This document shows, in pieces, positions 1,431 through 64,000 of a stretch of 64,000 bases of DNA (position 1 is the first letter of the stretch; each line of letters opens with the position of its first letter). Below the pieces are notes generated by a model. It was not told the origin of the DNA. It did no database searches and saw only the letters and a program-made list of their open reading frames with translations. Origin of the DNA: a virus. The stretch is from positions 4,811-68,810 of IMG/VR virus record IMGVR_UViG_3300021197_000993, one strand, 5' to 3'. The position numbers and the translations under genes were made by a program.

Positions 1431-1431
1431 T

Positions 1432-32152: not shown

Positions 32153-33300
32153 TCATTGTAGGTCGCGAATGCTCCCGCTTGCGCCAAAGAATGAACACCA
32201 AAGTTCACCCATTGTTCGGTAAAGCCCCTCTTGTCCAAGACGGTTAATCGCGAATGGGTCGCCAGTCTCAATACCGCTTTCGTAGTATTGGGTTGGGATT
32301 GCGGTTTGGAACCACAAGTAGTCAGTGTCCAAGTAGTAGATACGCGACAGACTACCTGCGCCTTCGTCGGGCATATCCTTGGTTGGAATCATTGGGACAC
32401 CGTTGTAGGTTGCGACGATGAACCCAGCCTCAAGACCGGGGACACCCTTCACACCGTTGAAGGTAGGAGTCACGCGCTTGCTGTCCATGAATCGCTGTTG
32501 CGATTGGAGCAATTGCTGAACGCGCATCAAAGTGTCGTAGCCCGTAAGCATAACCTTCGGGTTGCCACCACGAGTCCAAAGTTGCTGGAACAATCCGTCC
32601 ATTTGGTTGAGGGACAGGTTGCGGTTCGCGCTGGTAGCGTCAACATCAACTTCTGCGCTGTGGAAAGCGGCAGAACCATCGCGAGTGATGGAATACATGT
32701 CGTGCTTGGTCAGCGAAGTGGTGATGTGGTTGGTTCCCGTCGTCATCTTGTCCGGGTCGGAAGTGATTCGGTCAAGTGATTCAAAGTCGTTGCCAGCGGT
32801 TGTGTCAACATCCTCAAGAAGCATACGGTTGATGTGTTCTGCGTGGTGCTTACCCATTTCTTCTTTGAGAACGGTTCGCACATCGCCAAGTCCGTCGTCC
32901 TTGTCGGAAAGGAACATGCTCACTTCGGACAGGTCAAAAGTGTGCGCGACAGTCTTTGGCTTTGCGGCCACATGTAGGAACTCCGGCTTGGTGGTGTCGG
33001 GAAGAACGCCGTTCTCCGCGATACCGCCACCCTTGGTGAAGGATGCGCGCTCCGTGAGGATTCGCCATCCACTTCGTTCCCAAGGCTTCTTTGGTAGAAT
33101 TGAAAATGCATTGAACTCTTGGTTCAACTGCGACCATACTTTGCGACCGTAGATTGCTTGGTATGTTCCTGCGGTAGTGGACAACAAAGGCGCGTCAGCC
33201 TTCAAAATGTCTCCGCTTCCGTAGGTGTATCCTGTTTGAGAAGCACCACCGTAGTAGTATCGCTCCATGTCTTGCACTGTTCTTACATAATCTCTTGCCA

Positions 33301-33301
<1 letters not shown>
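32153..33301 (-). CDS. Major capsid protein (HK97 fold)
   Basis: 382 aa directly after protease/scaffold. GGIAENGVLP, KPKTVAHTF, ATYNGVPMIP and IYYLDTDYL segments fit HK97-type capsids of archaeal tailed viruses. Confidence 0.9.
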
Positions 33302-34728
<1,427 letters not shown>

Positions 34729-34745
34729 TGCCTCCCGACTTAACT

Positions 34746-41838: not shown

Positions 41839-43689
41839 CTATTGGAAACCACTGTCTTTCTGTTTAGCAGTTGGGTCTTTCGCGGCTTGAACGCTATCAA
41901 GAGCCTGTTCAATAGGTGTTTTCTTTGCACCGCGTTGATTCTTTTTGCTTGAAGGCGCGCCGGATTGTTGTGTCTCCGAACTGATTGGTGCAGGGCCGCG
42001 GTCGCGCTGACCTGTGCCTTCACCAAGACCGATTGCCTTCTCCATCATCATAATTTGACCGCCTCCCTGCGGAGGAGGTCCTCCACCGCCCGGAGGAAGC
42101 CCACCGCCGGGCGGCATCATTGGACCCCCACCCTGTGGAGGTATGCCGCCCCCCGGCGGCATAGGTGGAGGCATACCGCCACCCGGAGGCATACCGCCAC
42201 CCGGTGGCATTCCGCCCATCGCGCCGCCACCCTGTTGTTGCATAGCGGCTTCTTGTGGGTCGGGTTTTGTGTAAGTGAATCGTATGTCGCTACCGCCGTC
42301 TTCTGTTAATTCGGGTTGGAACCCAAGTGCTTGCATACGCTGTGCGATGTTGACTTCTTGTTCGTCGCGTCGCAGTCGCGTAATTTCGTCTTCTTCTTCA
42401 TTTGGATAGAGTGTGAGCATCCAGTCATGAACACCCATTTGGTCAAGCAAGCGGGGGAATAACTCGCGTGAATACAACTTCTGCCCCGATTCAACAGCAC
42501 GATTCGTGACAAGGATTTGCATTCCTTCGTTGTTCAATCCACCGGACTTACCACTATCCATCATGAAAACATTGGATACGCCATAGAAAGCCGCTATACG
42601 CATTCGTATTTCATCACGGACTTGCGCGTATTGCATTTCATCAAGACTATCCATGAAGCGAACAAACTCAACTTTACCGCGTCCCGACGCTGATTCAACG
42701 CCGACTTTAGGAATGTAGTGGGGGTCGCGCTCCATTTTTTCTTCTGCTCCTTTCCAAAACGAAGCGGTAGATTGAATGTTATCAGTGGTGATAGCGAGAA
42801 CACCACGAGGGATACGACGCTTTTGATACGCGAGGTAAATGTAATTGTCCATAGCAGTGAGTGATTGCGCTTGTCGCCACATGCTGGCGACAGGTGAGCG
42901 GCCATACAATTTTGACGGATTGAACTTGGAGATGTGCAACACTTCACCGTCAATGTAGTATTGCGTCTTTCCGCTACCGGCAGTGTTGATGTAGTGAACA
43001 TCTTGAAGAGGTAAGCCACAATTGTGAACTTCACACTTTTTGTGGTCGCCGTTGTGGGGGTAGGTTTTGTCGCGGTGGACAGGACACAGAAGGTATCGTC
43101 CTCCGCGCTTACCTGCTTTATCAGCAACAATACGCATGAATGTTGGGTCGCCACGAACCAATTCTTTGACGCGGAAAAACTCTATTTTGCCGTCTTGAGG
43201 GTCAATGAAATACTCTTTGATAAGCAACAAAAACGCGTCATCAACGATGTCCAAGTCCCATTCAATCTCCTTCATCACTTCAATAAATGACTGGTCCATA
43301 GTGTTGCGTTGTTTCATCAACCATCGCGGGTATAGGATTTGGTCAGCATCGGGGCTTTCAAACTTTTTATTGCCGCAAATACGACACGAGTCAATCGTGT
43401 CATGCTGGTATTCTTCTTCACAGTTGGTGCATTTCTTGTGAAACTTCTTCTCCCAATAATAGCCGCGACGAAAAATCTCTTGACATAGTGTGTTGATAGT
43501 CGTTCGGAGGATGATGGATTCTTGCACTGTTGCATAAAGAGCAGGTATGGATACACCTTGAACGAGAACAGGTTCTTGAATACCCGTTTTCCAAAGCGGC
43601 ATCTGCGGTTCGGGGGTTGTTCTACGGCTAAATGGTTTGGTCAACGAAGACAAAAAACGCCCTACTATTCCTTTTTCTTCGGCCATCAT
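41839..43689 (-). CDS. Portal protein with zinc-ribbon insertions and Pro/Gly-rich tail
   Basis: EVLHISKFNP..LYGRSPV, RIPRGVL, DEMQY...IAAFYGVS portal motifs; CTNC/CRIC and CPVH/CEVHNC inserts. Confidence 0.9.
   Translation of the reverse strand: MMAEEKGIVGRFLSSLTKPFSRRTTPEPQMPLWKTGIQEPVLVQGVSIPALYATVQESIILRTTINTLCQEIFRRGYYWEKKFHKKCTNCEEEYQHDTIDSCRICGNKKFESPDADQILYPRWLMKQRNTMDQSFIEVMKEIEWDLDIVDDAFLLLIKEYFIDPQDGKIEFFRVKELVRGDPTFMRIVADKAGKRGGRYLLCPVHRDKTYPHNGDHKKCEVHNCGLPLQDVHYINTAGSGKTQYYIDGEVLHISKFNPSKLYGRSPVASMWRQAQSLTAMDNYIYLAYQKRRIPRGVLAITTDNIQSTASFWKGAEEKMERDPHYIPKVGVESASGRGKVEFVRFMDSLDEMQYAQVRDEIRMRIAAFYGVSNVFMMDSGKSGGLNNEGMQILVTNRAVESGQKLYSRELFPRLLDQMGVHDWMLTLYPNEEEDEITRLRRDEQEVNIAQRMQALGFQPELTEDGGSDIRFTYTKPDPQEAAMQQQGGGAMGGMPPGGGMPPGGGMPPPMPPGGGIPPQGGGPMMPPGGGLPPGGGGPPPQGGGQIMMMEKAIGLGEGTGQRDRGPAPISSETQQSGAPSSKKNQRGAKKTPIEQALDSVQAAKDPTAKQKDSGFQ
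42060..42240 (-). repeat. Tandem GGMPP(G) coding repeat in the portal C-terminus
   Basis: GGCATACCGCCACCCGG units repeated on the + strand; protein GGMPPGGGMPPGGGMPPPMPPGGGIPP... Confidence 0.85.
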
Positions 43690-46497: not shown

Positions 46498-47898
46498 TCA
46501 ATCTAACAACCCCTCCATTATTTCATCCAAGTCCACAATGCGCTCACGGAACTCCGTGGTGGCCCAATGAGCCAACGCGAGAGCAATAGCAAAGTCATCG
46601 TGCCTACCAATACTGTCAAGCCGACCTTTCTTGCTCATACCAAACATAAGCAACTCTCGTTCAAGTTCCGACATCATCGTTCGTGAACGGTCATCACCCC
46701 ACGGCAATCGCATCTGCTCATTTTCAAAGCGCAACACCAAACCCATGAGAAGAGACTCACGGCGTTGGCGTGTGGAGATGAATGTTTTGATAGGGAGGTC
46801 TGTATCTGCGCGTAGTTCAGTAGCGAACACACGCTGAAAGTTGTTGGCTTCAAGTTCAATAACATCGGGATTAAACTTCGCGTTGAGTCTTTGAATCTCC
46901 ATTATCTGTGTTCGGAAGTCCATATTCTTGCGACGAACCGCGTGAACCAATTCAAGCAGTTCGGGGTTGGTTGATGGGCGACGAAGCACCACCATGACAG
47001 TATAGTCAGCCGCGCGGTCCGAAGAAATAGCAGGGTCCCAACCGATGAAGTATTGGTCATCGGGGTCGCCTACTTCGCGTTCAATCAGTTTGAGTGTGTT
47101 GTCTTTTGCGGCTTGCAGAATGGTTGAAGGGAACAAACTGCTCACATCGTCCATTGGTTCGCACAAGTATTCACGAGCAAATGCGATGGCTGGCATATCA
47201 TTGCGACGCGCATCAAGAGAATCTAAATCCCAACGCTCCGGCCAAAGAGCCTCACCTTTGGCGTTGATAGCAGGGTAGGTTTCAACGAGATAACCCTCCC
47301 TACTCTCCAACTCCGTGTAAAGGTCAGTTGGTGTAAACGGTGTCCCGACAATCATCAATTTGGATGTGTGGTGAAGTGTAGGAACAAGAACCTCGTAGAA
47401 CCATGAAGCAACGCGAGCGAGTTCAGTATCAGTCGTTCCCCACAGAATGTCGTCGCAAAGGATGAGGTCGGGGTGAATACCACGGATAGCACCACCAACT
47501 GACTTCGCGCTAATGTTGGAGCCGTTGCTAAAACCGAAGAATGTCTTTGACCAAGAATCTGCTTTCTTCATTTTCGCGAGGAACGGCACTCCATCAATCA
47601 AGTCATTGAGTGTGCGCATGTGGTGAATGGACTGATGAAGACTGTGTGAAATTAACACGGCTTTGGTCTTTGGGTTAAACGCTGTTTTCCACAGCATGTA
47701 GCCAAGAAAGAGCGTTGATTTACCGTGGTCGCGAGCCGCTTTGACACAATATCGTTTGCGTTTTTCAAGGTTGTTATACCAGTCTTCGTGATGATGTGAT
47801 AATTGAAAACCGAGTATCTCTTCAAAAAAGAATCTAAAATCGCGCTTCGCTACCTCAAAGTCAATCTCTTCAATTGCTTCAAGTGATAGGGATTGCAC
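46498..47898 (-). CDS. terL: Terminase large subunit
   Basis: Walker A AARDHGKST, Walker B ILCDD, coupling motif VGTP, FAREYLC, RNase H IGWDPA...DYT, and C-terminal HDDFAIALALA. Confidence 0.95.
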   Translation of the reverse strand: MQSLSLEAIEEIDFEVAKRDFRFFFEEILGFQLSHHHEDWYNNLEKRKRYCVKAARDHGKSTLFLGYMLWKTAFNPKTKAVLISHSLHQSIHHMRTLNDLIDGVPFLAKMKKADSWSKTFFGFSNGSNISAKSVGGAIRGIHPDLILCDDILWGTTDTELARVASWFYEVLVPTLHHTSKLMIVGTPFTPTDLYTELESREGYLVETYPAINAKGEALWPERWDLDSLDARRNDMPAIAFAREYLCEPMDDVSSLFPSTILQAAKDNTLKLIEREVGDPDDQYFIGWDPAISSDRAADYTVMVVLRRPSTNPELLELVHAVRRKNMDFRTQIMEIQRLNAKFNPDVIELEANNFQRVFATELRADTDLPIKTFISTRQRRESLLMGLVLRFENEQMRLPWGDDRSRTMMSELERELLMFGMSKKGRLDSIGRHDDFAIALALAHWATTEFRERIVDLDEIMEGLLD

Positions 47899-51385: not shown

Positions 51386-52653
51386 TGTCCACCTCTTCGC
51401 ACATACAAGTCATACGGATGCGCGCCCCAGCGTGTCGCGTCATCATCGGGGTCAGTCTCCGTCGCACCCGTTGGAGCGGATGTCAAACCACCCGACGCGT
51501 TATCACTTGGTCCTTCACTCGCACCTTGCATGGATTTGTCTTCTTTCCGCATCATGCGTCGCAACAAATGATTGAGTTGGTCTATTAGTTGACGATATTC
51601 AATTTTATCGCGTGGTGAAATGCGATTGGTAATTTTAACACGCTGTGCGCGCGCTTTCAAGAACTCCTCGGATGCAAGAATAGCGTCGGATGCACCTATG
51701 CCACCAGCACCGCCAGTAAGCGATGTTGCTTCGGACATAATTTTACCACCCGGTGTTTTTGCTGTGCGTGGTTGGCGCATTGCTTTACCGTGTGGTCGTG
51801 AATCACGAGAACCGCGAATTGCTTTCGGTATTCGCGCCTTCGGAGTCACTGTGGGAATAGGTGGTGTAAGGTCTTGTGTGGGTTGACTTTGACGCTGTTG
51901 TTGTCGCATAGCCTCCGCTTCACGCTGTCTTGGGTCGGAGTAAGATTGTTTTGCTCGTGAACGACCACTCGCACCACCAACTCGGATGGGTGCTGTTCGT
52001 TGTCGGTAGGTGTATCCCGCACCAAACGAAGCATACGGAGCGCGAGCGGCACTCATACTTGCCATGTATTGCGGTTGGCGTATGTTCCCCGCTTTGAGAC
52101 GGACACCGCTACCCTTTTTTCTTCGCTTACGCTTGATTGATTCGGTGGTGACATTTTTACGCGCTTTCCGTTTTTTACCAGTTTTGGCGCGTTCACGAGC
52201 GCGAATTGTTTGAATTGTAGTCGTTTTCTGCGGTTTATCGGTATCAAACTTCGGCGCATCTTTTTTCTTACGAATCATTTCAAATGCATCGTCAATGAAT
52301 GGAGCGGTGGAGAGCATCATGTTCATACCCATACCGCTTGCGCGTGGGTTTGCACCAGCGTTGGCTTCACTTTGTCCGACTTGTCCTGTGAGTTGACTCA
52401 ATTCAGCCTGTTGTTTCACTTGACTGTCCTCTTCGTCATCGGGGTCTTTTTGCGGTATTTTGACTTTCATGTGTTGCAATCCTTGCAACTTATGTGCGCG
52501 CTGTTCTTGTTCTTCACGCTTCTTCGCATCATCTCGTGCGCGCTCATCGGAATCTTCGCGACCGACAGTTGAATCGCCCTGCAACTCTTCTGCGCTCTCG
52601 CGAGGGTTGAAACGCATACCTGCTGTTCCGCCTTCGGGTCCACCAACCATCAT
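51382..52653 (-). CDS. Hypothetical protein with Arg/Lys-rich core
   Basis: 423 aa. The acidic N-terminus switches to basic after PFIDDAFEMIRK. GGAGGTGA RBS. Confidence 0.75.
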   Translation of the reverse strand: MMVGGPEGGTAGMRFNPRESAEELQGDSTVGREDSDERARDDAKKREEQEQRAHKLQGLQHMKVKIPQKDPDDEEDSQVKQQAELSQLTGQVGQSEANAGANPRASGMGMNMMLSTAPFIDDAFEMIRKKKDAPKFDTDKPQKTTTIQTIRARERAKTGKKRKARKNVTTESIKRKRRKKGSGVRLKAGNIRQPQYMASMSAARAPYASFGAGYTYRQRTAPIRVGGASGRSRAKQSYSDPRQREAEAMRQQQRQSQPTQDLTPPIPTVTPKARIPKAIRGSRDSRPHGKAMRQPRTAKTPGGKIMSEATSLTGGAGGIGASDAILASEEFLKARAQRVKITNRISPRDKIEYRQLIDQLNHLLRRMMRKEDKSMQGASEGPSDNASGGLTSAPTGATETDPDDDATRWGAHPYDLYVRRGGH

Positions 52654-53318
52654 TCATCACCTCCCATGAGTTTACCGCGTAATCTCGCCCATACTTCGGG
52701 AGACTCTTTCGCTAATTCAACTTTGAGGATGTTGATGGTTTGTGCCGTCATGTGTTCATTGGTAGTTCCAGCCGCACGCTCTTGGACTCTCATAATGTCT
52801 TTTACCGTTTCGCGAACTTCTTTGTGCAACGAAACGATGTTGCGCACATACTGTGGGTCGTTTCGGTCAGCATCATCAAGAAAATGACCCAATTCACCAT
52901 TCATGCGAGCCAAATTGTTGCGCAGACTTTCCATCTCTTGACCCGCTTCAACAATGATGATGTCAGCCGCACCCTTCTGCACAACTGGTTTGAGGTGATG
53001 TTTGAGGTGGTGATACACACTGGATTCGGGCATTTGAATATCCAAAGCAATCTCTTCGGCAGTCATTGAAGCGTTAAAATACGCCAATTCTAATTCTTCG
53101 CGTTTAACAGACACACATAATTTGCATTCACTATTTGATGCCATGTGGTATTCGCCCATGTGGTTGCGAAAATGACGGTCAGCCGTTCCTTCGCGCCAAC
53201 CTTTGTCTTTATCCAATTGCTTTGCTGTGATGATACCATGTGTCATCATTTCTTCAAGACCGTCGCGGTCGGAATCTTGACAGAACTTGCAAGATGCTCG
53301 CGTTATACGCTCCGCCAT
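52650..53318 (-). CDS. Probable terminase small subunit
   Basis: Two CxxC...HxxxH repeats flanking HTH-like helices, then a coiled coil and C-terminal INILK strand. First gene of the operon containing terL. Confidence 0.6.
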   Translation of the reverse strand: MAERITRASCKFCQDSDRDGLEEMMTHGIITAKQLDKDKGWREGTADRHFRNHMGEYHMASNSECKLCVSVKREELELAYFNASMTAEEIALDIQMPESSVYHHLKHHLKPVVQKGAADIIIVEAGQEMESLRNNLARMNGELGHFLDDADRNDPQYVRNIVSLHKEVRETVKDIMRVQERAAGTTNEHMTAQTINILKVELAKESPEVWARLRGKLMGGDE

Positions 53319-53355
53319 AGGAAAGTCCAAGTAGCCGTAGCAAAAGAGCGTTTCT

Positions 53356-53685
53356 ATGAGAAAGCGGCTTGGTCGTGCGCCAAAAATCGCGGGTGTTCCT
53401 CTCACTATACAGACTACCAAGAGCCTTTCACGCGCGGCTATGGACATTCTCGCCAACAATAAAGCGTCGTTATCCGAGCGTGAACGAAGAATGAACATTT
53501 GCCGTCAATGTCCGGAACGGAATCACGACCGATGCGGCCTATGCGGTTGCTTCATCAAGACCAAAACAATTCTCAATAATAGCGAGTGTCCTGTTGGTAA
53601 ATGGTCAACCTTGTTGTCCGAGACGACGGTAGACGATACCAGTCGCGCTGAAACAAACGAAAAGCGCGCCGATAATCCAACTTAA
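53356..53685 (+). CDS. Cys-rich small protein (DUF6171-like); the only credible plus-strand gene
   Basis: RMNICRQCP...CGLCGCFIKTKT...CPVGKW family pattern; divergent from the terS candidate. Confidence 0.7.
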   Translation: MRKRLGRAPKIAGVPLTIQTTKSLSRAAMDILANNKASLSERERRMNICRQCPERNHDRCGLCGCFIKTKTILNNSECPVGKWSTLLSETTVDDTSRAETNEKRADNPT

Positions 53686-53838
53686 GTCAGTTGAAGTCAT
53701 TTTAGGTCCGGAAAAAACCAAAATGAGGAAACAACCGAGCGTCAACGCGATAAGTTGCACCATAATCATGTCAACAACGACTGATTTGCGCAAATTGGTC
53801 ATGTCGCTCAATGCGCCATAGAGACTTGTCATATCCAT
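53605..53838 (-). CDS. Small two-TM membrane protein
   Basis: Two hydrophobic helices and a basic C-terminus (holin-like topology); last gene of the GTPase operon. Confidence 0.7.
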   Translation of the reverse strand: MDMTSLYGALSDMTNLRKSVVVDMIMVQLIALTLGCFLILVFSGPKMTSTDLSWIIGALFVCFSATGIVYRRLGQQG

Positions 53839-53839
53839 T

Positions 53840-54412
53840 TCAGCGACCTCCTACAAGACCACGCGCCAGCGCACCGATGCCACCACCGACATTTTGCATC
53901 ATACCGGGGTCTGCGAGCGCACCATCCAGCATGGTTTGCATTGTGCTTTGATTCGCTATGGCTACCATCTGCTGAAATTGCATACTCATTTGCTGAACAT
54001 TGTTTGAAGCCGTGTTCAACATTTGTGTTTGGCTCATGGTCACGCTATCAGCGGTCGGCATACCTTGAACGCCACTAAAATCAAACTTGTAGCCGTCTCC
54101 GTCTTCAATCAAGCGCGCATTTGCCAAAAGACTACTCATTGAAACAGTCATCAAGTTGCTCAACAATGCAATAAGCATGTTCATGTTCGCGCCGTTATTA
54201 TCCGAAAGCCACCTGTCAATCATCGGATTAGAGGTTATCATTGATGAAAGAATCTCCATTTCAGTAGGTGGTGGAGGTGGCGCATACGGATTGTATCCAC
54301 CAGCCGCACCATAGCCCGCACCAGCGGGGATTTGTTGCTGTCCATTCGGTAAACCGAGGTTCAATGTTCCCGTATTTTGCACAGGTTGTTGGTTATTTGA
54401 CCACCATGCCAT
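53840..54412 (-). CDS. Gln/Met/Gly-rich protein with poly-Pro segment
   Basis: 190 aa; GAGGTGG RBS. Confidence 0.75.
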   Translation of the reverse strand: MAWWSNNQQPVQNTGTLNLGLPNGQQQIPAGAGYGAAGGYNPYAPPPPPTEMEILSSMITSNPMIDRWLSDNNGANMNMLIALLSNLMTVSMSSLLANARLIEDGDGYKFDFSGVQGMPTADSVTMSQTQMLNTASNNVQQMSMQFQQMVAIANQSTMQTMLDGALADPGMMQNVGGGIGALARGLVGGR

Positions 54413-54421
54413 AATACCACC

Positions 54422-55306
54422 TCACGCGCTACCCTCATTTTGTTGTTGCGGTAGAGGGAGAGGCGCACTTTGTTGCTGTAATTGGTGCATCGCGAGTGCG
54501 TCATGAAGCAATTTTGTGTTGTTCCCTGCTTGAAATTGACGCATATCAAAGACAATCATAACCAAATCGTTCATTCCTGTTGCGGAATTGGTAAAATGAG
54601 TGATAGGGATGTTGTCTTGTTTCAACATCGCGAAGAATTGTTCGTATTTTGCAAGTATTGGCGGTGTGTTATCTCTCTTTTTGATGCTATTTACAGGAAC
54701 AGCAACAACAGAAACACCCTTTTTCAACTTGGCTTTCAGTGTTCCTCCACTCGCTTCTTGCTCCGCTTCTTCTTCTCTTTCCCATTTACAAAGCAAATGA
54801 TAGAGGTGTAGGTGTTCGGGACAGTATGTTCCGCGCATTTTGCGTCCGCTGGTCACATTTTCTCGCGCTACGAAGGCTTCAACCTCTCCTGTGACCGGAT
54901 TTTTGAAGTAAATGTCCCATAATGACTGTCCAGTTTCCTCATCAATGATTTGTTCGTAGATATTACCAGCCATCCGCAATAAATGTTCAACATCTGCACC
55001 GTCAATGACACAACGCATGGTATTGGTGTTATAGCGGTATTTTCCCCCGAATAACCACCTTCGCGGAGAGAACATGCTTCTTTTTGTCGGTTTTAAGAGG
55101 CGATATGCCTGTTTTATGTCCTTTCTTCGCGCTTTTTTGGGGTTTGGGTGCTGTGAAGGGTAGAAGTTGACCTGCGGAACCTCAATATGTTCACTCACAT
55201 TGCTCATTGCGGCTTGCGCGGATGCCTGTTGTTGCATCTGTGCAAGGCTCATTTGGGTCTGTGCGGCAAGCCTAAGTAGGTCATTTTGGGGTTTATTTCC
55301 GAGCAT
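54422..55306 (-). CDS. Hypothetical protein (294 aa), possible Cys/His metal site
   Basis: RCVIDG...TYCPEHLHLYH; GGTGA RBS. Confidence 0.75.
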   Translation of the reverse strand: MLGNKPQNDLLRLAAQTQMSLAQMQQQASAQAAMSNVSEHIEVPQVNFYPSQHPNPKKARRKDIKQAYRLLKPTKRSMFSPRRWLFGGKYRYNTNTMRCVIDGADVEHLLRMAGNIYEQIIDEETGQSLWDIYFKNPVTGEVEAFVARENVTSGRKMRGTYCPEHLHLYHLLCKWEREEEAEQEASGGTLKAKLKKGVSVVAVPVNSIKKRDNTPPILAKYEQFFAMLKQDNIPITHFTNSATGMNDLVMIVFDMRQFQAGNNTKLLHDALAMHQLQQQSAPLPLPQQQNEGSA

Positions 55307-55310
55307 TTTA

Positions 55311-56033
55311 TCACCAATTCAACATTTCAATCATCGTTTTTTCAACATTCCAGCCGATTTTGGTCGCCATCATGCTAACGCGACACGGAATACCTGCTTT
55401 TTGGAGTCTTCGCATGGCTGGGCGGTGCAAATTGAACACTTTATGCTCGCGTAAACGCCCCGATTGCCACAAAATGTTCGCATTTTCGTCCCACCACTCG
55501 TCTGCTTTGTTCGCGACAAGCCATATTTGCTTCGGAGAGTAGCGTTTCCCGCGTAAACGCGACTTGAGAGAGCGATAGTTCCACCTTTTTTCAATCAAAG
55601 CGTCCACAAGATACTCAAAACCGCCTACTGCGTCAATGACCTGCGCTCCGTTTCCTTTCAAAACACGCGTATCGGTCATGAAGACAGCAATTTCTACCTG
55701 CCTATCAACCATATCGTCAATCCACAGGTTCCAAAATCGTTGTTGACCGCCAATATCGGACGAATGAACAACTCTTTTCTCACCTTGCCAACGGATTCGT
55801 TTGCGTGTTGCGTTCGGAAGCACATATCCTCCTCCTAAGAGTCGTTTCGCGTGCATTGTGCGCTCTTCAATGTCATCCATTTCACCGGGAGTGCGCATAA
55901 AGAGGTCAAGAGTTGTTTTACCGACCTGTGTTGGTCCATAAACACCTATTCTGCGCGGTTTGAGGAAGTTATAGAGTTCCCGTCCGTAAACAACCGCACC
56001 CATCAGCGCGCTACCTGCCATCGTCGCGACCAT
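55311..56033 (-). CDS. Small Ras-superfamily (Arf/Sar-like) GTPase
   Basis: G1 GPTQVGKTT, G2 ERT, G3 DIGGQ followed by FWNLW, G4 NKAD, G5-like MATKIG; hydrophobic N-terminal helix; TAATG coupling. Confidence 0.85.
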   Translation of the reverse strand: MVATMAGSALMGAVVYGRELYNFLKPRRIGVYGPTQVGKTTLDLFMRTPGEMDDIEERTMHAKRLLGGGYVLPNATRKRIRWQGEKRVVHSSDIGGQQRFWNLWIDDMVDRQVEIAVFMTDTRVLKGNGAQVIDAVGGFEYLVDALIEKRWNYRSLKSRLRGKRYSPKQIWLVANKADEWWDENANILWQSGRLREHKVFNLHRPAMRRLQKAGIPCRVSMMATKIGWNVEKTMIEMLNW

Positions 56034-56269
56034 TATGACACCCATCCGCGCACTTTGTTGTAAAACCATTCAATGGTGTTCTCCCAAATGCTCACATCGG
56101 AATGCAATTCAAAAAAAGACACGCTCAAAGCAGTAGCAAAACCTGTGATGATACAATACACCAATGCTTTACCCTTCTCGTAGTAGGTATCAAGAGTGTT
56201 TTGAGTGTGCAAAGCCCGCAAAGTGGCCTCCGTCGCGTCATCGCTCGGAGTTTTGAAAAGCCAACCCAC
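56033..56269 (-). CDS. Small single-TM membrane protein
   Basis: 78 aa, hydrophobic ALVYCIITGFATALSVSFF; GTG start after GGAGTGA. Confidence 0.7.
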   Translation of the reverse strand: MGWLFKTPSDDATEATLRALHTQNTLDTYYEKGKALVYCIITGFATALSVSFFELHSDVSIWENTIEWFYNKVRGWVS

Positions 56270-56275
56270 GCAAAA

Positions 56276-56800
56276 TCACTCCTTTTTCTTAGCGTAAGTT
56301 CCATCAGTGTTGCGTTTGCGCGTATCTCCGCCCAATTTCATTGGTTTTTTGTGATTCGCTTTGTGTTGAGGTGCTTCGGGTTCAATCTCACCGTTCATCA
56401 GCCCAAGATATTGCTGGACTTCGGGGTCTTTCTCCAATTCCTCCATCTGTTTTGCGAAGACAACCTCTTGTTTTTTAATCTCCATCTCCATTTGCGCTTG
56501 AGCAAAACGCATTTGTTGGTTTTGCATTTGACGCGTCATGTTGCGTTGCATGTTTGAAACAACAGCGCGCTGGTCCATACCGTCTTGCGCCAGCATTTTG
56601 TAGATGAAATACGCCATACCTTGCAAAGTAAACGCGCCCATCGTGTAAGTGATAGCATTCGTGTAGGTGTCGGGTGATGTCAACCACAACCCTGCGTCAA
56701 ATACCGCGATTGCGCATCCAACGAGTATGCTGACGAATGAAATCAGTCCCAGCACTCGTAATTCGTCTTTGTTTTGGGGGGTTTGTTGTTGCATCAGCAT
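56276..56800 (-). CDS. Two-TM membrane protein with cytoplasmic coiled coil
   Basis: Two hydrophobic helices, then a Q/M/E coiled coil; AAGGAGG RBS; first gene of the operon. Confidence 0.8.
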   Translation of the reverse strand: MLMQQQTPQNKDELRVLGLISFVSILVGCAIAVFDAGLWLTSPDTYTNAITYTMGAFTLQGMAYFIYKMLAQDGMDQRAVVSNMQRNMTRQMQNQQMRFAQAQMEMEIKKQEVVFAKQMEELEKDPEVQQYLGLMNGEIEPEAPQHKANHKKPMKLGGDTRKRNTDGTYAKKKE

Positions 56801-56829
56801 AATCCTCCTTACATCGCGACATCGCGTGC

Positions 56830-56925
56830 GCTACATAAGGATGTTGATTCACCCTTTTATTGATATTATCATATTATTGTTAGAACAATAACAATTATTA
56901 TCATTATAAGAAAAATATGAGATTA
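56830..56925. promoter_or_regulatory. AT-rich intergenic element with hairpin and direct repeat; probable terminator/promoter
   Basis: TTATTGTT-AG-AACAATAA (56874-56891) flanked by two TATTATCAT copies (56864, 56896). CTTATGTA TATA-like element on the minus strand near 56832-56839. Confidence 0.55.
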
Positions 56926-59900
56926 TTGCGAATCCTGTTGTTGACTTTGGTCAATATGCGCTTGAGGCTGATATGGAGGGAACGCCGCCATACCTTCTCT
57001 CAACTCTTGCCCTGCGACTTGTCGTTGACGATATGCCGTTCTTGGGTTTTGCATCACCGGCGGCATGTTCGGGTCCGGTTGCGCTGGCCGACGGCGGTCT
57101 ACACTCGCGTCAAACCTTTGTCGCGCAATTTCTTGGCGTTCATCAAAGTCCATCGGTTGTTGTTCACCATTGACTTGTTTATTTGCGTAGTCGTAATGAG
57201 CCATCGTATCATAATTGTGTGGTCGCAATGTAGGATGCGCGAATGCTGACATCGTTTTCATGTTTGTAAGTTTCTTCATCACATCATCGGGTAGCGCGCC
57301 TTCTTTGTAAGCGCGTTGCAATTCTTCGTAGTTGTCAAACCCGTCAATACCTTCTTGTCCTTGCATCAGTTTGGTGAGGTCTTCTTGCATAGACCAGTTT
57401 GGACGCAAATGATAACGCATCATATCCAACATCGTATCAAACTTACTACCGTCAAGTTCCGACATTGCTTCTCCCTTGTCCAGCATTTTGTCTACTTCAA
57501 CCGGCTCAATAGTGGTCGTTGGGTTTCCGTTTCCGTCTTTGCCGTATTGAGCATGGCTGAAACCAAGTTGGTCGCCGACTTTTTCTGTGATGTTTCTCAT
57601 CACTTCTGCCTTGAATGCTTTCGGGTCAAGAACGAAGTCGCCACGATTACCGCGCGGAATGTGATGTTTCTTGATGAGGCCCATTTTACCTTTACCTTTA
57701 TCCATGCTTTTTTCATCCGCGTAGCCGTAAAGTTTTGCTACTTCGTCATAGAACAATTCGGGGTTGTATTGTTCTTTCTGTTGCCCGAATTGTTCAATCG
57801 TCAACCCTTCGGGTATAAACGGATGGTCAAGAGGATTTGCGTGGTCAGCCAAGAAAATCTCCAACCCTTTGAGTTTAGCGTATTGAAGATACATTGCGCG
57901 TATCTGCTTATTCAATTTAGAGGTGTAATCGCCACCAATACTTCGTCTACGACCGTTTTGTATCGTTGAAAGCATGTTTCCAACATCCTTCGCTCCGTTT
58001 TCTTTGAACGCTTTGGTAAGTTCATCGCTGAATGACAGCCCTTCTTCAACCATGTCGTAATTCTCCAAAGGCATTCCAGCGCGATTAGAAACTTCTGTGA
58101 GGTCAGCATGTTCAAGCCCAGTTGCCTTTTTCATAACCATAGGTAGGTTCTTCAAACCACCAATAGAGTCTACAATAGGTTTCAATTTTTCATCCGACAA
58201 ATCGTGTTCGCGCTGTTTCATTTTAATGAGGCGACGCGCTTCTTTGTTATTGGCGAAGAAGTCTTCCATATCCTCAAAACGAATATCGCGAGGTTGCGCA
58301 TTTGTTCGCGACGGGTCAAACAAACCTTCGCTTATTTCAGTTGGCGTTAAGAAACGACCGTGATAGAAGTGCAATGGTGGGTAATGCTGAAACTTCATCG
58401 GTAGTTCACCCGAAAATACATCATCAACTCCCAAATTGAATGCACCTTTTTCATCAACGGGTAAAGTTGGGGTTTGAGGCATTCTACCCTTCTCATCCGG
58501 GTCAACCGTGAAGTGCATCTCGGCCATCTCTTGCAACTCTTGCAGGTCATCGTTGAGTGAATGCATGTCATCGTTATGTAGACTGTGCGAATCGGGTTGT
58601 AGCAATCTGTTAATGTAATCTTGCGCTTCTTCAATGAAGGCATCCTTTTCGTTTTGAGTCATACTGTTGCCGCTCTTTGCAACAAAACTTTCAATAATTT
58701 TACCAAGAATCATCACACGCTCGCGAAGAGCCGTTTTGTGGTGTGAATCCATGAAGGCGTTATGTGTGCTTTGAAAGTTCAACTGCGCTAAGGCTTGTTT
58801 TGCTGGTGTTTCTTCACCCGCTTCTTTGGTGGGTTCGGGCTTTGGATTGGCGGCGAGTTCTTTGGCGCGTTCAGCGGCGCGGGCGCGGCCTTCTTCTTCT
58901 TCTTTTTCGTAGTTGCGTCCCACATCGGGGAGTTCCGGAGCATAATCATCCATTGAGAGTGGTATGTGTTGTTTCTTTCGCGCTCGCATAAGTTGCGCGC
59001 GGCTCATGTATTTACCACTTTCAAGTGCGTCTGCGTAAACTTGCGACGGTAAGGGAATCCGCGGCATCATGTCCCTCAAGAAGTCCGGCATATCATTTCT
59101 CAAGCGCGCATCAAACACTTGTCCGAACATTCTGTTGAGCAAATCAAACCCTTGACTCGTCATGCCGTCGTAATGGTGATTCTTTCCTTTGACGGTGTTT
59201 CCGTCTGCGTCTGTGTATCCTTCTTGGAGGTGTTCATCGTCATCAACACATCGTTTTCCGTGTCCGTGGCAATGAGAACACAATCCGTTGGACACACGCC
59301 CACCGATAACATCGGGGTCTTCGTGGTCGCAATCGGGACACGCGAGTTGTTCGTGGTCATTAACATGCATCGTATCAGCGTGTATGTGGTCAGCATAGGA
59401 TGGGGTATCGCGAGGACGACAGTGTGAAGCCATGTATTTGTTAATCGCCGCGCTATTCTTCACTTCACCTTTGAGTTCGGGAATGTGGTTTCGTAGATAT
59501 GTGGCGGCTTCATCTCGTGAAACATGGCCTGTTCCGTGGCAAGTGCCGCACAGCGTTGGTGCGTGTTGTCGCCAGTTGGAGTGCAACTTTTCAATCGGCA
59601 TAAACTCATAATCATTGCGAAGGATGGCACTTTCCGCACCGCGCGTGAAGTGAGAGTTGTGATGACGCTTCCTCATTTCAGCCTCACTCAACTGCCCCGC
59701 TTCGTTTGGCTCTTCGTTATGATGGTCTTGAGGAACATCTGCATGATTGATAATTTCTCCTTCGGGAACAAGATGAGCGAGACTATCGTTCAATTCTTTG
59801 TCAATGTGTTCAGCCATTTCGCCGTCGTGAATCAATCCCTTTGCGCGTTCAGCCTGTTCTTTTGTTAATGGGAAACCCATTTTGGCTCGGTGCGCTTTTA

Positions 59901-62900
59901 ACATGTTGATGTCATCAACGATAGGAGCGGCGAGATTATTAGTGAACTCACGGATGTTGGTTCCCCCCATTTCACCAAGTTTACCCATAGGCATGCGCGA
60001 ATCTTTGTATTCATCAATGGTGTGTGATTTATTCTCATACACATTGCCGTTGGATTGGGCCGCGAAGATGATGTCTTCTGTGTCTCCATAAAGGTCATCC
60101 ATGATTGCAGTAAGCCCCTCCAATTGGTCTTGACGGTTTTTCATACCGTGAACTTTCAGCAACAGTGGTCCGGCTTTGATAAATGCACCAAGCGCGTATT
60201 CATTTGTTCGCGAAAGGTTTTCTCGTGATGTAGCGAGTTGACTCTTGAGTTTTTCTTTTCCTTTGTCTATTCGGTTATTGGCATTTTTCAACTGCCGTTC
60301 CAGTGTGTCATATTTTGCTTTGAAGTCATTTTTCATTTGCTCAATTCTTGCGCGACCTTGAGGGTTATCATACACACCGGGATATTTTCTCTCTATGCCA
60401 GTTTCATCTGTTTCTTTTCTTTGCTTCAAGCCTTCTTCAGCACGCTTCAATTCACCAATGTCTTTGGCGTAGGTGCGCCATGTTTTATTTTGTGAAATCA
60501 ATTCCTTCTCTTTTTTGACATTTTCCAATTTTTTTCTCGTAAGTCTCATCGCATTTTGAGGGTCTTTGTAGATTTCTTGCGCGATGCTTTGTCGTGTAGC
60601 CTCGTCGCCCAACGCTCCCGGTTTGTATGTTTTACCGAGTTCACCTTGTGCGATAGCGTCAATCATTGTCAGTGCAGTATCAAGTGCATCCATGCGTGTC
60701 GCCACCAAAGTGCGAACGCGAGCCTTTTCGTGATGCGCGTCGTATGCGTCATCGTCGTTGAGGAAAAATGAGAGTGCGGCGAGTTGTTTACCACTCATAC
60801 CAGCAGAACCACCTGCTATCGTATTTTCAGCAGTTTTGTAGAGTCCAAATTGTTTGTAGATGTTGTGAGCGCGCGGATTACCACTTGCGACAGCGTTCTT
60901 GATGAGAGCGCGATAGCGACGAGCATTTCTCTTTTCCCACGCCATCTTTTGCCCTTTCTTTGCCGCACTTGCTTGAAAACTCTCCAATTTACTTTTGTTG
61001 AATTGGTCATCATCGGGGTAGATGTATTGAAGGATTTTTTGAAGCGTAGCGCGCTCACCTTCGTCTCCCAAAACTTTCAACTTTGCAGTTCGTCCACCTT
61101 GCTGATACTCTTCCAACAAAGGCATGGTCATCATTTTGTATTTGTAAGGCGTTTTGTCCCTTCTCTTCGGAGAATGCGCGTATGCTTCATCTGCTGTTCT
61201 GTTGCCAAAACGGTCCGGATGACACGCGACACACTCTTCGTCTTCGCCAATGAGGTGATGTTTGTGTTCCTCGGAAACTTCATCATCTTCACCTGCGCTT
61301 TGAAGAGCGTTGTGATGGTTTTGCCACCTCTTTTGTTGATGAATCACTTTCTGTTGATGTTCTTCATCCATTGCTTCGCGCTCTCCTGTGCGTTCCAAGT
61401 ATCGTAGCAAGCGTGTTATCTCGTATCCTTTGAGTGAACCTTTCTGTGTAAATTGACGACCCAAATACTTGAACGCGTCTTTGTATCCATCAACGCTCAT
61501 GTCAGCGTTGGTGTAGCGCATAGCCGCATTCAACAATTTTGTTCGCCAAGCAGGGTCATCGTGAGGAAAGAGAGCATGCATTCGCGACATGCGTCGGTTC
61601 ATTTGCGAACTCATTCTTTCCATCAACATCTGCGATTTGCCACCAAGCAATTCATCCAATTTTTTGTAGCGATTGCTGTCTTGTAGTGTTTGCGGATTTG
61701 AAAAGTGCAGAATGTCGTCAGCGGTGAGATTTATTTCTGCCAACTGTTTATCCACATCACCCATTTCACTCCTCAACTGCGCGTCTTGGTGATAATAGGC
61801 CGAAAAGCGCAAATCACTCAACACTCGTCCCATACCGACAAGATTGGATGCGAAGTCGCTTGTAGCACGAAGAATGCTTGATGTTGACGCACCATGTAGA
61901 GGGTGGCCCACTTCAAAGTCGTTGCCGCTCAACCCACCGAGTTCAGCAAAGTCGTCAATACGGTGTTTATCGTCTGCATCGTTTTTATTCGCACGATTGA
62001 GTTGTGCCGCCAACACTTGCATTTGATAGTCTTCTTCGGTCATGAAACCGCTGGATTTCATGCGCTCCAACTTAGCCAACTGTCGTTGATATTTTTGGTC
62101 TGCTTCGTCGTCCAACCTTTCTCCAAGTTCGGGGTCGCGCAACCCTTCTTCGGTGACACCTACACCCATTCTTGCTTCTGCCCCTTTACCTTCGCGCTCT
62201 TCTTGTGAGCCGGATATTGAAGCGTCGGGGATTGCCTCTTGTGGGTCATCCTTGTTGGCATCCAATTCACCACCGCTACGAATTGCGTTCATCAATTGAG
62301 GATGAAAATTGCTTGTGTCTTCTAATTGACCAAGTTGTTCTGTCAACGACTCAACAACCTCTCTACTGAATGCATTTTTACCAGCGACGAACGGCCTCAA
62401 AAGCAAATCGGGGACAGTAGCAACAGGCAATGCGATACCCAATTGTTTCGCGGCCTCTCGTAGCGACGGTGTAAGCGCGTTCTTTGATTTAACCGCGGTG
62501 ATTTCACCACCGAAACGACCCGCGCGTCCCGCAGTCCCAAACGGGTTGCCTGTCAAATCACTCATGAAATTGTTGAACTTTTCTTGTATTTCATTGAAAG
62601 CGGAGAGGGTATGTTCACTACGCATTTCGGCGGCTTGCCGCTCATACTCTTCTTCATCGGGTGTTATCCCCCGTCCTTTCGCACGCCGTCTTTCATTCCC
62701 TTTTTCATCAATGAAAGTTTCATAACGCTGTTCTCTTTGCTGTCTTTTTTCAGCATCTCGTCGTTCTGCTTCACTGGTGTCAACGGCATTGGTGCGTATC
62801 AATTCTACAAGTTGATTGACCATATTTGACGAGGGCTTTCTTAACGAAATAGACGGTGCATCCTCTCCACCGCGCCTCTCCATATCTGTCTGTTCAAAGA

Positions 62901-63690
62901 ATCTCGCGTAGTCCTCTCCCACTTCTTTTTCGCGTTCAACAGTGTCAACCTTTTCTTCGGGGTTGCGAAACATTGTGTCAAGCATTTCTTGTTGGCGCGT
63001 AGCCGCTTTATCTTGGTCGCTTTGAAACGAAGGGTCAGCGATTTCACCGCGTCGTCGTCGCTTTCTGTCAGCCATCTCCGCAATCTCTTCTGCGCTTAAT
63101 TGTCTCTCTTGTCGTGGAGTAGGGAGAATGTTGTCTTGGGACAATTCAACGGCTTTACCCAGCGCGAGTCCGAGCGGGTGTGTTAATCCTCTACCGTCGC
63201 TCAACAGCAAGTTTTGAATGCCCTTCAACTCATTCTCGTAGTATTGTGTATTTTCTCTACCATCAAGGAACGGTTGCGCGATAAAAGCCGATATGTCATC
63301 GCGCACACCTCTTGTGGCTCCCTGCATTTGATTGAGCGTTTCATTACCCTCAACTGCTTCGTGTTCTTCTTGACACTGTTTGAGTTCGGGGTATTCATTT
63401 TGCAACCTTTTGAGGTGCATTATGACAGGACGGTTGACAAGCAGGTCATCACCAAGTGCCGGAGTGTCTTCATCCGGCGCGTCATCCATTTTACGCGAAA
63501 GAAGTAGCGAGAGGTTGGTGTTGTTCATGCTAAGTAATTCGTAAAAGAAGTCCCACTTGTCTATTTCACTGTTCTCGTAGCGTTGTTGTATTCCGTCTGC
63601 GAACGGTGCAAGAGCCGCATAACCAGCGTTCGCTTGCTCTTCGCGGTGAGGCTTCTTATCGGCTTTGATGATACTGATGAGACGACCCAT
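56923..63690 (-). CDS. Giant (~2255 aa) hydrophilic protein with DnaJ-type zinc-finger motifs; probable internal virion protein
   Basis: Uninterrupted ORF with CGTCHGTG, CPDC, CSHCHGHG and CVACH. Start uncertain (63690 MGRLISIIKAD vs 63792). Confidence 0.75.
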   Translation of the reverse strand: MGRLISIIKADKKPHREEQANAGYAALAPFADGIQQRYENSEIDKWDFFYELLSMNNTNLSLLLSRKMDDAPDEDTPALGDDLLVNRPVIMHLKRLQNEYPELKQCQEEHEAVEGNETLNQMQGATRGVRDDISAFIAQPFLDGRENTQYYENELKGIQNLLLSDGRGLTHPLGLALGKAVELSQDNILPTPRQERQLSAEEIAEMADRKRRRRGEIADPSFQSDQDKAATRQQEMLDTMFRNPEEKVDTVEREKEVGEDYARFFEQTDMERRGGEDAPSISLRKPSSNMVNQLVELIRTNAVDTSEAERRDAEKRQQREQRYETFIDEKGNERRRAKGRGITPDEEEYERQAAEMRSEHTLSAFNEIQEKFNNFMSDLTGNPFGTAGRAGRFGGEITAVKSKNALTPSLREAAKQLGIALPVATVPDLLLRPFVAGKNAFSREVVESLTEQLGQLEDTSNFHPQLMNAIRSGGELDANKDDPQEAIPDASISGSQEEREGKGAEARMGVGVTEEGLRDPELGERLDDEADQKYQRQLAKLERMKSSGFMTEEDYQMQVLAAQLNRANKNDADDKHRIDDFAELGGLSGNDFEVGHPLHGASTSSILRATSDFASNLVGMGRVLSDLRFSAYYHQDAQLRSEMGDVDKQLAEINLTADDILHFSNPQTLQDSNRYKKLDELLGGKSQMLMERMSSQMNRRMSRMHALFPHDDPAWRTKLLNAAMRYTNADMSVDGYKDAFKYLGRQFTQKGSLKGYEITRLLRYLERTGEREAMDEEHQQKVIHQQKRWQNHHNALQSAGEDDEVSEEHKHHLIGEDEECVACHPDRFGNRTADEAYAHSPKRRDKTPYKYKMMTMPLLEEYQQGGRTAKLKVLGDEGERATLQKILQYIYPDDDQFNKSKLESFQASAAKKGQKMAWEKRNARRYRALIKNAVASGNPRAHNIYKQFGLYKTAENTIAGGSAGMSGKQLAALSFFLNDDDAYDAHHEKARVRTLVATRMDALDTALTMIDAIAQGELGKTYKPGALGDEATRQSIAQEIYKDPQNAMRLTRKKLENVKKEKELISQNKTWRTYAKDIGELKRAEEGLKQRKETDETGIERKYPGVYDNPQGRARIEQMKNDFKAKYDTLERQLKNANNRIDKGKEKLKSQLATSRENLSRTNEYALGAFIKAGPLLLKVHGMKNRQDQLEGLTAIMDDLYGDTEDIIFAAQSNGNVYENKSHTIDEYKDSRMPMGKLGEMGGTNIREFTNNLAAPIVDDINMLKAHRAKMGFPLTKEQAERAKGLIHDGEMAEHIDKELNDSLAHLVPEGEIINHADVPQDHHNEEPNEAGQLSEAEMRKRHHNSHFTRGAESAILRNDYEFMPIEKLHSNWRQHAPTLCGTCHGTGHVSRDEAATYLRNHIPELKGEVKNSAAINKYMASHCRPRDTPSYADHIHADTMHVNDHEQLACPDCDHEDPDVIGGRVSNGLCSHCHGHGKRCVDDDEHLQEGYTDADGNTVKGKNHHYDGMTSQGFDLLNRMFGQVFDARLRNDMPDFLRDMMPRIPLPSQVYADALESGKYMSRAQLMRARKKQHIPLSMDDYAPELPDVGRNYEKEEEEGRARAAERAKELAANPKPEPTKEAGEETPAKQALAQLNFQSTHNAFMDSHHKTALRERVMILGKIIESFVAKSGNSMTQNEKDAFIEEAQDYINRLLQPDSHSLHNDDMHSLNDDLQELQEMAEMHFTVDPDEKGRMPQTPTLPVDEKGAFNLGVDDVFSGELPMKFQHYPPLHFYHGRFLTPTEISEGLFDPSRTNAQPRDIRFEDMEDFFANNKEARRLIKMKQREHDLSDEKLKPIVDSIGGLKNLPMVMKKATGLEHADLTEVSNRAGMPLENYDMVEEGLSFSDELTKAFKENGAKDVGNMLSTIQNGRRRSIGGDYTSKLNKQIRAMYLQYAKLKGLEIFLADHANPLDHPFIPEGLTIEQFGQQKEQYNPELFYDEVAKLYGYADEKSMDKGKGKMGLIKKHHIPRGNRGDFVLDPKAFKAEVMRNITEKVGDQLGFSHAQYGKDGNGNPTTTIEPVEVDKMLDKGEAMSELDGSKFDTMLDMMRYHLRPNWSMQEDLTKLMQGQEGIDGFDNYEELQRAYKEGALPDDVMKKLTNMKTMSAFAHPTLRPHNYDTMAHYDYANKQVNGEQQPMDFDERQEIARQRFDASVDRRRPAQPDPNMPPVMQNPRTAYRQRQVAGQELREGMAAFPPYQPQAHIDQSQQQDSQ

Positions 63691-63744
63691 TGGTGATGGG
63701 GAGGGCGACCATACCCTTGAAGGTAGCGGTTGATGGAAAATTGG

Positions 63745-64000
63745 CTGGGATTTTTTTTTGGCCCCCACGAAAAAAATGTCTGTATTTCGCATGCGGTTAA
63801 GCAGGGCAAATTGCCACCGCGCGAGCGCGAGTCCGGCTAACGCGAGGGCAAATTGCGCGAGGCCGCGAGGGGTAGGTCTGTCTCGCGCGTGTTGCGCTTT
63901 CGCGGTAGGGTGAACAGGCTCGCAGTGTCGCGTTTAGCGTCGCGCTCAACTGCGCGAATCGCGGGTTGGTCGCGCGAAACACTTTCGCTCGCTCGCGCTC
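63745..64000. other. Non-coding GC/CGCG-rich segment preceded by T9...A7 tracts; possible module boundary or genome end
   Basis: Abrupt compositional shift with repeated CGCGAG/GCTC units and no credible ORF. Confidence 0.45.

Follow-up and report, generated by a model that had tools for sequence, protein, structure and literature searches.

We analysed a 64-kb window (the whole stretch of DNA under study) of the 68.8-kb linear virus record IMGVR_UViG_3300021197_000993, which CheckV places at ~66% completeness, and centred the analysis on six minus-strand open reading frames (ORFs), g1 to g6, that span positions 53605-56800 and include a gene for a small GTPase, g3. The initial annotation of this DNA had described six tightly coupled ORFs at these positions, and its layout was borne out: from g1 to g6, successive genes are spaced by 6, -1 (a TAATG overlap), 4, 9 and 1 nucleotides (nt), with Shine-Dalgarno-like words ahead of the starts. 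We found that the six genes are real, co-inherited and held at a fixed genome position.

Using the GTPase as bait, we collected 80 related loci from IMG/VR (57-93% GTPase identity) and located the remaining genes by tblastn. Same strand and order were kept by g3, g4 and g6 in 80/80 loci, by g2 in 79/80, by g1 in 77/80 and by g5 in 75/80, and several of the loci with a missing gene are cut by the end of the contig. Synteny across related viral contigs, named by the initial annotation as a check, is thus present in 75-80 of the 80 loci, and g1-g6 remain collinear even in loci whose GTPase is only 57% identical. Purifying selection acts on all six genes, with ratios of nonsynonymous to synonymous substitution (dN/dS) of 0.03-0.25 in 23 of 30 pairwise comparisons against five relatives (g1 0.04-0.07, g2 0.05-0.15, g6 0.05-0.25, and g5 0.14-0.15 where estimable); the remaining 7 comparisons were saturated in dS.

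Five more contigs (L081-L085) came from metagenome-assembled genomes (MAGs), and three of the five hold all six genes together with the downstream neighbour g7. Both contigs at 40% GTPase identity (L084 and L085) retain g3-g4 by sequence. In L084 the ORF shapes follow in order, namely a two-helix coiled-coil protein, a protein with one transmembrane helix, the GTPase, a Cys/His protein, a Q/M-rich protein and a small protein with two transmembrane helices, and L085 keeps the first five of the cassette gene shapes, after which the sequence changes. The MAG labels of these contigs are Promethearchaeati, Maricaulis, Parvibaculum (two contigs) and Methanobacteriota; being mutually inconsistent, they suggest that viral contigs were mis-binned, and they provide no evidence of a host.

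Judged by its sequence and its predicted structure, g3 is a real Ras-superfamily small GTPase (TRAFAC class), with the fold and the nucleotide-binding residues intact. The initial annotation gave it G1-G4 motifs and a hydrophobic N-terminal helix; G1 reads GPTQVGKT, G3 DIGGQ and G4 NKAD, followed by a G5-like MMATK/SAK that divergent members show as SAK or SAR, and residues G45, G50, K51, D105, G108, N187 and K188 are invariant in an alignment of 22 sequences. A long insert lies between G1 and G3. Two details of the annotation had to be amended. The gene itself is real, but the start lies at M13 and not at the head of the ORF, as the 12 upstream codons hold stops or diverge in relatives; most database homologues of the GTPase are 236-241 amino acids long. 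Likewise, DIGGQ is present here, but the catalytic Gln of the DxxGQ motif varies across the family (Q, E, D, H or A).

The AlphaFold2 (AF2) model of g3, with a mean predicted local distance difference test score (pLDDT) of 87.8 and a predicted template modelling score (pTM) of 0.82, has a long N-terminal helix (residues 5-36) followed by the G domain. The helix is hydrophobic (mean H 0.42, moment 0.21) and not clearly amphipathic. With this model, Foldseek returned 1185 PDB matches at E <= 0.001, the best being Rab27B, Rap1, Rab43 and KRas at ~1e-8, with target template modelling (TM) scores of 0.63-0.71, and Rho and Ral structures were matched as well. Taken alone, the g3 sequence matched no Pfam family at E <= 1, and in a single-sequence PDB search it found a chance match only (E 1.3).

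The family is narrow, since an exhaustive HMMER search of 1.84 billion cluster representatives recovered only 71 of them at E <= 0.001, many being fragments. Its members were found only on viral or viral-looking contigs, the 'cellular' matches being short viral-looking contigs in unrelated MAGs, and no homologue was present among 50,697 GenBank phage records. No GTPase fused to another protein turned up at E <= 0.001 when 747 candidate proteins of 421-2000 amino acids were searched, which is weak evidence.

The initial annotation had classed the GTPase as Arf/Sar-like, a description that is weakly supported. A profile of the g3 family matched, in the PDB, 8OUN (GerdArfR1, of which 8OUM is a further entry) at E 4.2e-6, Arl8A/B entries at ~6e-4 to 1e-2 (Arl8A at 5.8e-4) and Rab33B at ~1e-3; excerpts of the accompanying report identify GerdArfR1 as an Asgard Arf-family protein (bioRxiv 10.1101/2024.02.28.582541). 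Arf (PF00025) was moreover the most-touched Pfam family, being reached by 9/22 g3 members, weakly and below threshold (best E 0.0048), with Roc and MMR_HSR1 each touched by 5/22 and SRPRB by 1/22 (E 0.19). Against the description stand these sub-threshold scores and the Foldseek result, in which no Arf, Arl or Sar structure was among the 50 best matches listed for g3.

An archaeal small GTPase with a membrane function offers a further comparison. According to excerpts of one study (PMC10927574), ArvA (OapA) drives vesicle formation in Haloferax with ArvB (DUF2073) and the Zn-ribbon protein ArvC, and ArvB (DUF2073/OapB, PF09846) lies directly downstream in 93% of the ArvA-containing genomes analysed there. 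We took 13 ArvA candidates beside PF09846 matches (33/61 archaeal genomes sampled), and Arf-like and Ras/Rab-like comparison proteins from one Asgard MAG. The ArvA candidates (L086, L088-L100) share a GIYGPPNxGKTTLANRI P-loop, and the viral GVYGPxxVGKTTLD is nearer to it than to the LGLDxAGKTT of Arf. Scored with a hidden Markov model (HMM) of the viral family in a 31-sequence set, where E-values are relative only, the 13 short ArvA candidates reached 11.4-22.2 bits (12 of them at least 16.4), the three best Asgard Arf-like proteins 21.1-21.6 bits and six Ras/Rab-like proteins 3.0-10.1 bits. Local hhalign assigned ~95% probability to all three sets alike. Global hhalign gave a probability of 98.3 for ArvA (E 1.9e-13, score 72.8), 97.5 for the Arf-like set (E 3e-11, score 60.7) and 96.6 for the Ras/Rab-like set (E 5.6e-10, score 53.7). 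The similarity to ArvA is thus real, but by these profiles the viral family is roughly as distant from ArvA as from the Arf-like set.

The grouping with Arf that the first classification implied was not recovered in a maximum-likelihood (ML) tree of 46 rows: the 22 viral sequences formed a clade of their own (100/99) on a branch of length 1.95, as did the 13 ArvA candidates (100/98), and three Asgard Arf-like proteins joined the Ras/Rab-like ones (93/82). Long branches meet in this tree, which was built without eukaryotic Arf, Sar1, SR-beta or MglA sequences, so it is a limited test; the long multi-domain Arf-like ORFs of L104, L105, L106 and L108, the 366-aa ORF of L094 and exact duplicates were dropped from it. 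ArvB (PF09846) was searched for and not found anywhere in the 68.8-kb record, whereas the controls Haloferax volcanii and Methanosarcina acetivorans both matched, and neither g4 nor g5 matched DUF2073 or DUF2072 at E <= 1. On our reading, g3 belongs to neither family and represents a distinct, virus-only lineage that combines an ArvA-like P-loop and switch I with an Arf-like switch II.

The five partners of the GTPase are predicted to include three small membrane proteins. At a Kyte-Doolittle cut-off of 1.6, hydrophobic segments were called once each in g1, g2, the GTPase N-terminus and g5, twice in g6, and nowhere in g4. These counts agree with the earlier description of g2 as a protein with one transmembrane helix and of g6 as a holin-shaped protein with two, and agree in part with that of g1 as a coiled-coil protein with two: one of its helices is strongly hydrophobic, whereas the second is moderately so and falls under the threshold, though its sequence is conserved. 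In g1, this N-terminal hydrophobic hairpin is followed by a long helical stretch, charged and rich in Q, M and E, and then by a basic tail at the C-terminus; the protein has no Pfam, PHROG or PDB profile match. The g2 protein has a conserved N-terminal MGWLFKTPSDD..., one transmembrane helix and a Trp-rich C-terminal tail, and its gene begins with ATG in most relatives and with GTG here. In g6, two transmembrane helices are separated by a short loop and followed by a short basic C-terminus, a shape that resembles a class II holin in outline only; no holin family was matched in Pfam or PHROG, and no endolysin gene is adjacent. A dual-start (holin/antiholin) motif in g6 was considered and rejected, as the MDM start is unconserved (MDI in L010). 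Neither g2 nor g6 matched a known family or structure. Basic residues flank the hydrophobic helices on the side of the soluble parts, so the positive-inside rule would place the soluble portions of g1, g2, g6 and the GTPase on the cytoplasmic side.

Directly after the GTPase, in 80/80 loci and in both 40%-identity loci, comes g4, a soluble protein with Q-rich ends that is the second most conserved of the cassette (50-93% identity). The Cys/His protein noted in the initial annotation was confirmed here as an invariant cluster in the alignment, C99...C162-P-x-H165-x-H167-x-x-H170 (with P163 also invariant), which may be a metal site; position 104 is Cys in most relatives and Ala here. The AF2 model of g4 is mediocre (pLDDT 69.6), and with this model none of 71 Foldseek matches reached E <= 0.001. 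Its sequence had no Pfam match, one PDB profile match at E 0.14 and no usable match in the ESM Atlas. The g5 protein starts with a Q/G/M/P-rich part that looks disordered, has one hydrophobic helix in its conserved middle and ends in a Gly-rich segment; its best PDB profile match had an E of 0.28, and its Atlas matches (0.80, to a viral cluster, and 0.75) were in neither case to a named family.

Several features suggest how the unit is expressed. The AT-rich upstream region reported by the initial annotation was evident: in a greedy ORF tiling of the window, the gap upstream of g1 was the only one of 15 to exceed 57% A+T, part of the tiled gaps being tiling artefacts. Within it, a promoter-like TTTATG-type box lies ~45-55 nt before the g1 ATG and is followed by a strong AAGGAGG ribosome-binding site. 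By eye and unscored, a YTTATG-type box occurs at a similar distance in most of 20 loci, whatever the upstream gene. The same region contains an 8-bp inverted repeat (TTATTGTT, 2-nt spacer, AACAATAA) at ~56880-56900 on the minus strand, which was not obviously kept among the relatives' upstream sequences that we compared.

At the other end of the unit, between g6 and g7, lies a convergent gene for a DUF6171 protein that overlaps the 3' end of g6. The protein carries the Cys motif CxxCP...RCxxCGC...K...CPxGKW, which stays intact down to 36% identity, and the gene is on the opposite strand in 79/80 IMG/VR loci; it may insulate the packaging genes from read-through or regulate it. Since a promoter-like box precedes g1 and this convergent gene follows g6, g1-g6 probably form one transcription unit with its own promoter. 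The DUF6171 gene is also the only confirmed plus-strand gene in an otherwise minus-strand late region, and at its position the 40%-identity relative L084 has an ORF for a small basic Cys/His protein on the strand of the cassette (7040-7306, plus in locus orientation).

The constant downstream neighbour, g7, is found in 80/80 loci and stands outside the cassette count. Its conserved part begins at about residue 61, and it has a Cys-rich N-terminus with CxxC, a coiled coil and a weak similarity, below threshold, to helix-turn-helix families; a small terminase subunit and a late regulator are both conceivable roles for it. An extension of the g7 N-terminus into the 106 nt behind g6 was considered and rejected, as this stretch is unconserved in the g7 frame and carries the DUF6171 gene on the opposite strand. 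A search for RNA sequencing runs yielded none recorded as RNA, and two labelled 'RNA? (probably DNA)' (shares 0.09 and 0.08); from these, four contigs of 174-226 nt were obtained that cover parts of g4 and the GTPase 3' end and are uninformative on expression, transcript ends or operon structure.

Table. Positions of the cassette genes and of the other features discussed; coordinates are those of the window, except for the chaperonin gene, which is given in the coordinates of the whole record (G000).
Feature	Coordinates	Strand	Details
AT-rich intergenic region	56801..56922	-	122 nt, 70% A+T, upstream of g1
g1	56276..56800	-	174 aa
g2	56033..56269	-	78 aa, GTG start
g3, small GTPase	55311..56033	-	240 aa from M13 of the 252-aa ORF (55311-56069)
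g4	54422..55306	-	294 aa
g5	53840..54412	-	190 aa
g6	53605..53838	-	77 aa
DUF6171 gene	53356..53685	+	Pfam PF19668, E 4.8e-7, 30.5 bits against a cut-off of 27
g7	52650..53318	-	~222 aa from M61 of the listed 282-aa ORF (52650-53498)
Large terminase subunit	46498-47898	-	Minus-strand morphogenetic block
Portal	41839-43689		Morphogenetic block
Prohead protease	33301-34749		Morphogenetic block
Major capsid protein	32153-33301		Morphogenetic block
Cpn60_TCP1 thermosome-type chaperonin	G000 2263-3684	+	E 3e-118

The cassette lies directly upstream of the block of genes for the terminase large subunit, portal, protease and capsid, in a window whose genes are almost all on the minus strand; genes for a tail tube, a tape measure and a tail fibre were also recognised by family matches. 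The portal is 30.5% identical to those of the haloarchaeal siphoviruses HVTV-1 and HCTV-5, its next best matches being to viruses of methanogen-related archaea, and relatives occur on marine contigs of 90-118 kb. Magroviruses, in the extracts available from their published description (PMC5434244), are marine, ~100 kb in size and globally abundant in surface oceans, with halovirus-like portal, capsid and protease at ~30% identity and, in 12 of 26 genomes, a thermosome subunit or GroEL near the replicative genes. Set against that description, the virus fits a magrovirus-type archaeal tailed virus, because its portal identity, structural families, chaperonin and contig sizes match, and the gene content of its left end fits the group-A-like magroviruses of the same work. 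At that left end of the record, outside the window (G000 1-4810), there are plus-strand genes of a replicative block, including an ORF that by eye resembles a DnaQ-type exonuclease.

Two giant minus-strand ORFs in the window, of 2289 aa (56923-63792) and 2002 aa (34746-40754), matched nothing in Pfam or PHROG at E <= 0.01. The former, g0, lies directly upstream of the cassette and was found in only 37 of the 80 related loci, so the upstream neighbour of the cassette is variable.

We propose, with a probability of roughly 0.4, that the cassette is a virus-specific membrane module, most likely for virion release. In this model, the cassette would have a promoter of its own and stand at the head of the packaging and structural genes, and the GTPase would be anchored by its hydrophobic N-terminal helix to the cytoplasmic side of the membrane. 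Acting as a nucleotide-dependent switch or timer, with the probably metal-binding g4 as its partner, the GTPase would govern, together with g4 and the low-complexity g5, how the membrane proteins g1, g2 and g6 assemble; the resulting structure would, late in infection, deform or open the membrane of the host, most likely for the release of virions from a host that would have no murein wall. We infer the membrane topology, the late timing, the interaction of the six proteins and the egress role from the anatomy of the unit and its position. A membrane switch, a Cys/His partner, a low-complexity protein and three membrane proteins at the head of the block together suggest a late, membrane-directed function. 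Among such functions, release is our first choice because a non-enveloped virus must open the cell, because no other candidate for this task was seen, and because the position mirrors that of lysis cassettes. The report of the initial annotation that the window has no recognisable lysis gene stood up to family searches, in which none of 35 window proteins scanned matched a 'lysis' PHROG (E limits of 1, 0.01, 0.01 and 0.001). In the portions of a review drawn on here, the players in archaeal tailed-virus egress are described as completely uncharacterised (PMC10791045), and ArvA may provide a precedent for a GTPase that acts in membrane budding with operon partners, one of them a Zn-ribbon protein, as far as extracts of the ArvA study go (PMC10927574).

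A number of points weigh against a release function. No partner has a recognisable fold or family in the Pfam, PHROG, PDB, Foldseek or Atlas searches; the likeness of g6 to holins is one of shape, and small proteins with two transmembrane helices are common; and the late timing is deduced from position alone. With about a third of the genome missing from the record, a separate release system could lie in that part. The variable catalytic Gln makes the hydrolysis mechanism unclear, and the host is uncultured. A stronger version of the proposal, in which the cassette is a self-contained, GTPase-timed egress machine and the first release system identified for archaeal tailed viruses, is unlikely in our estimation; here an anchored switch related to both ArvA and Arf would recruit the viral membrane and low-complexity proteins and open an envelope that consists of an S-layer only.

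The main rival to release is membrane remodelling without lysis, in the manner of ArvA or of Arf/Sar1, where the cassette would bud vesicles or build a membrane platform that serves as a replication or assembly site, supplies decoy vesicles or changes the cell surface to block superinfection. We consider this doubtful, although it has points in its favour: in global hhalign the viral profile scores no lower against ArvA than against the Asgard Arf-like proteins, and the two operon partners of ArvA, one of them a Zn protein, recall a viral GTPase that is always followed by the Cys/His protein g4. Against it count the failure to find PF09846 in the record, that of g4 and g5 to match DUF2073/DUF2072 (E <= 1), and the separation of the viral clade from ArvA in the tree. 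Nor is it obvious why a tailed virus that lacks an envelope would need vesicles, and release accounts no less well for a location at the start of the late block.

Two further explanations are less probable. The unit might serve host takeover or defence, by interfering with division or the envelope or by acting as a counter-defence switch, and so not act directly in release. Small GTPases serve generally as switches, the partner proteins are unique to these viruses, and the presence of g0 upstream in only 37/80 loci implies that the unit behaves as a portable cassette, all of which would suit such a role. It is nevertheless improbable, in that accessory takeover genes are usually patchy whereas the cassette was present in every relative retrieved, and in that it sits in the late block rather than the replicative one; since the loci were chosen by their GTPase, this universal presence says little about viruses that have no GTPase. 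The least probable of the readings that we weighed gives the cassette a part in virion morphogenesis or packaging, with products that tether the procapsid or the packaging machinery to the membrane, or that are themselves packaged and injected. The shared strand and the invariant position beside g7 and the terminase-portal-capsid block would agree with this, as would g7 itself, which is present in 80/80 loci and looks DNA-binding. Yet a conserved convergent gene intervenes between the cassette and g7, no PHROG structural family was matched by the cassette proteins, and the haloarchaeal siphoviruses share the portal while no homologue of the GTPase occurs among the 50,697 phage records. Moreover, neither integral membrane proteins nor a membrane-anchored GTPase are known as components of the heads or tails of tailed viruses.

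Our literature searches on Poseidoniales virus GTPases and on Arf-like GTPases in archaeal viruses found no description of the cassette, and the word 'GTPase' was absent from the texts of the magrovirus and Poseidoniales-virus papers searched, whose supplementary tables may list the gene as hypothetical. This analysis adds a tree and a comparison with ArvA, describes the Cys/His cluster in g4 and the DUF6171 gene at the boundary, corrects where g3 and g7 start, and tests for selection. The cassette offers a concrete and testable candidate for egress, with a switch that has mutational handles (the P-loop Lys and the G3 Asp and Gly) and five co-inherited partners. A virus-only small-GTPase lineage that combines ArvA-like and Arf-like signatures would also bear on how membrane-acting GTPases diversified outside eukaryotes. 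If the stronger proposal of an egress machine were true, abundant ocean viruses would independently have taken up a process that is a hallmark of trafficking in eukaryotes, the remodelling of membranes by GTPases.

Among known systems, the late operon of phage lambda begins with the lysis genes (S-R-Rz), which are followed by the terminase genes, and the cassette resembles a lambda-type holin cassette in that genes for small membrane proteins are grouped immediately ahead of those for the terminase and the structural proteins. It differs from phage holin cassettes in that no endolysin or spanin was recognised in the viral unit and in that the hosts would have no murein, and we know of no described phage lysis cassette that contains a GTPase. 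With Arf and Arl8, g3 shares the Ras-superfamily fold and a hydrophobic N-terminal helix, and with Arf also the switch II DIGGQ..F.NLW, whose Trp stands at what we take to be the Arf offset; it differs from Arf in falling below the Pfam Arf threshold, in lying outside the Asgard Arf-like proteins in the tree, in its insert between G1 and G3 and in being encoded by a virus. A hydrophobic N-terminal anchor followed by a G domain is also the arrangement of SR-beta and Sar1, although no SRX/longin-like or Sec23/24-like partner was recognised here. Sar1 carries His in place of the catalytic Gln, and some members of the viral family likewise read DIGGH. From ArvA-ArvB-ArvC, the viral system is set apart by its clade, by a G3 of DIGGQ against the DTPG consensus of the ArvA candidates, and by a unit that has three small membrane proteins and no recognisable ArvB; what the two would have in common is a small GTPase of the archaeal world, encoded in an operon with at least two dedicated partners, one of them Cys-rich, and acting at the cell membrane, a location that for the viral proteins is predicted.

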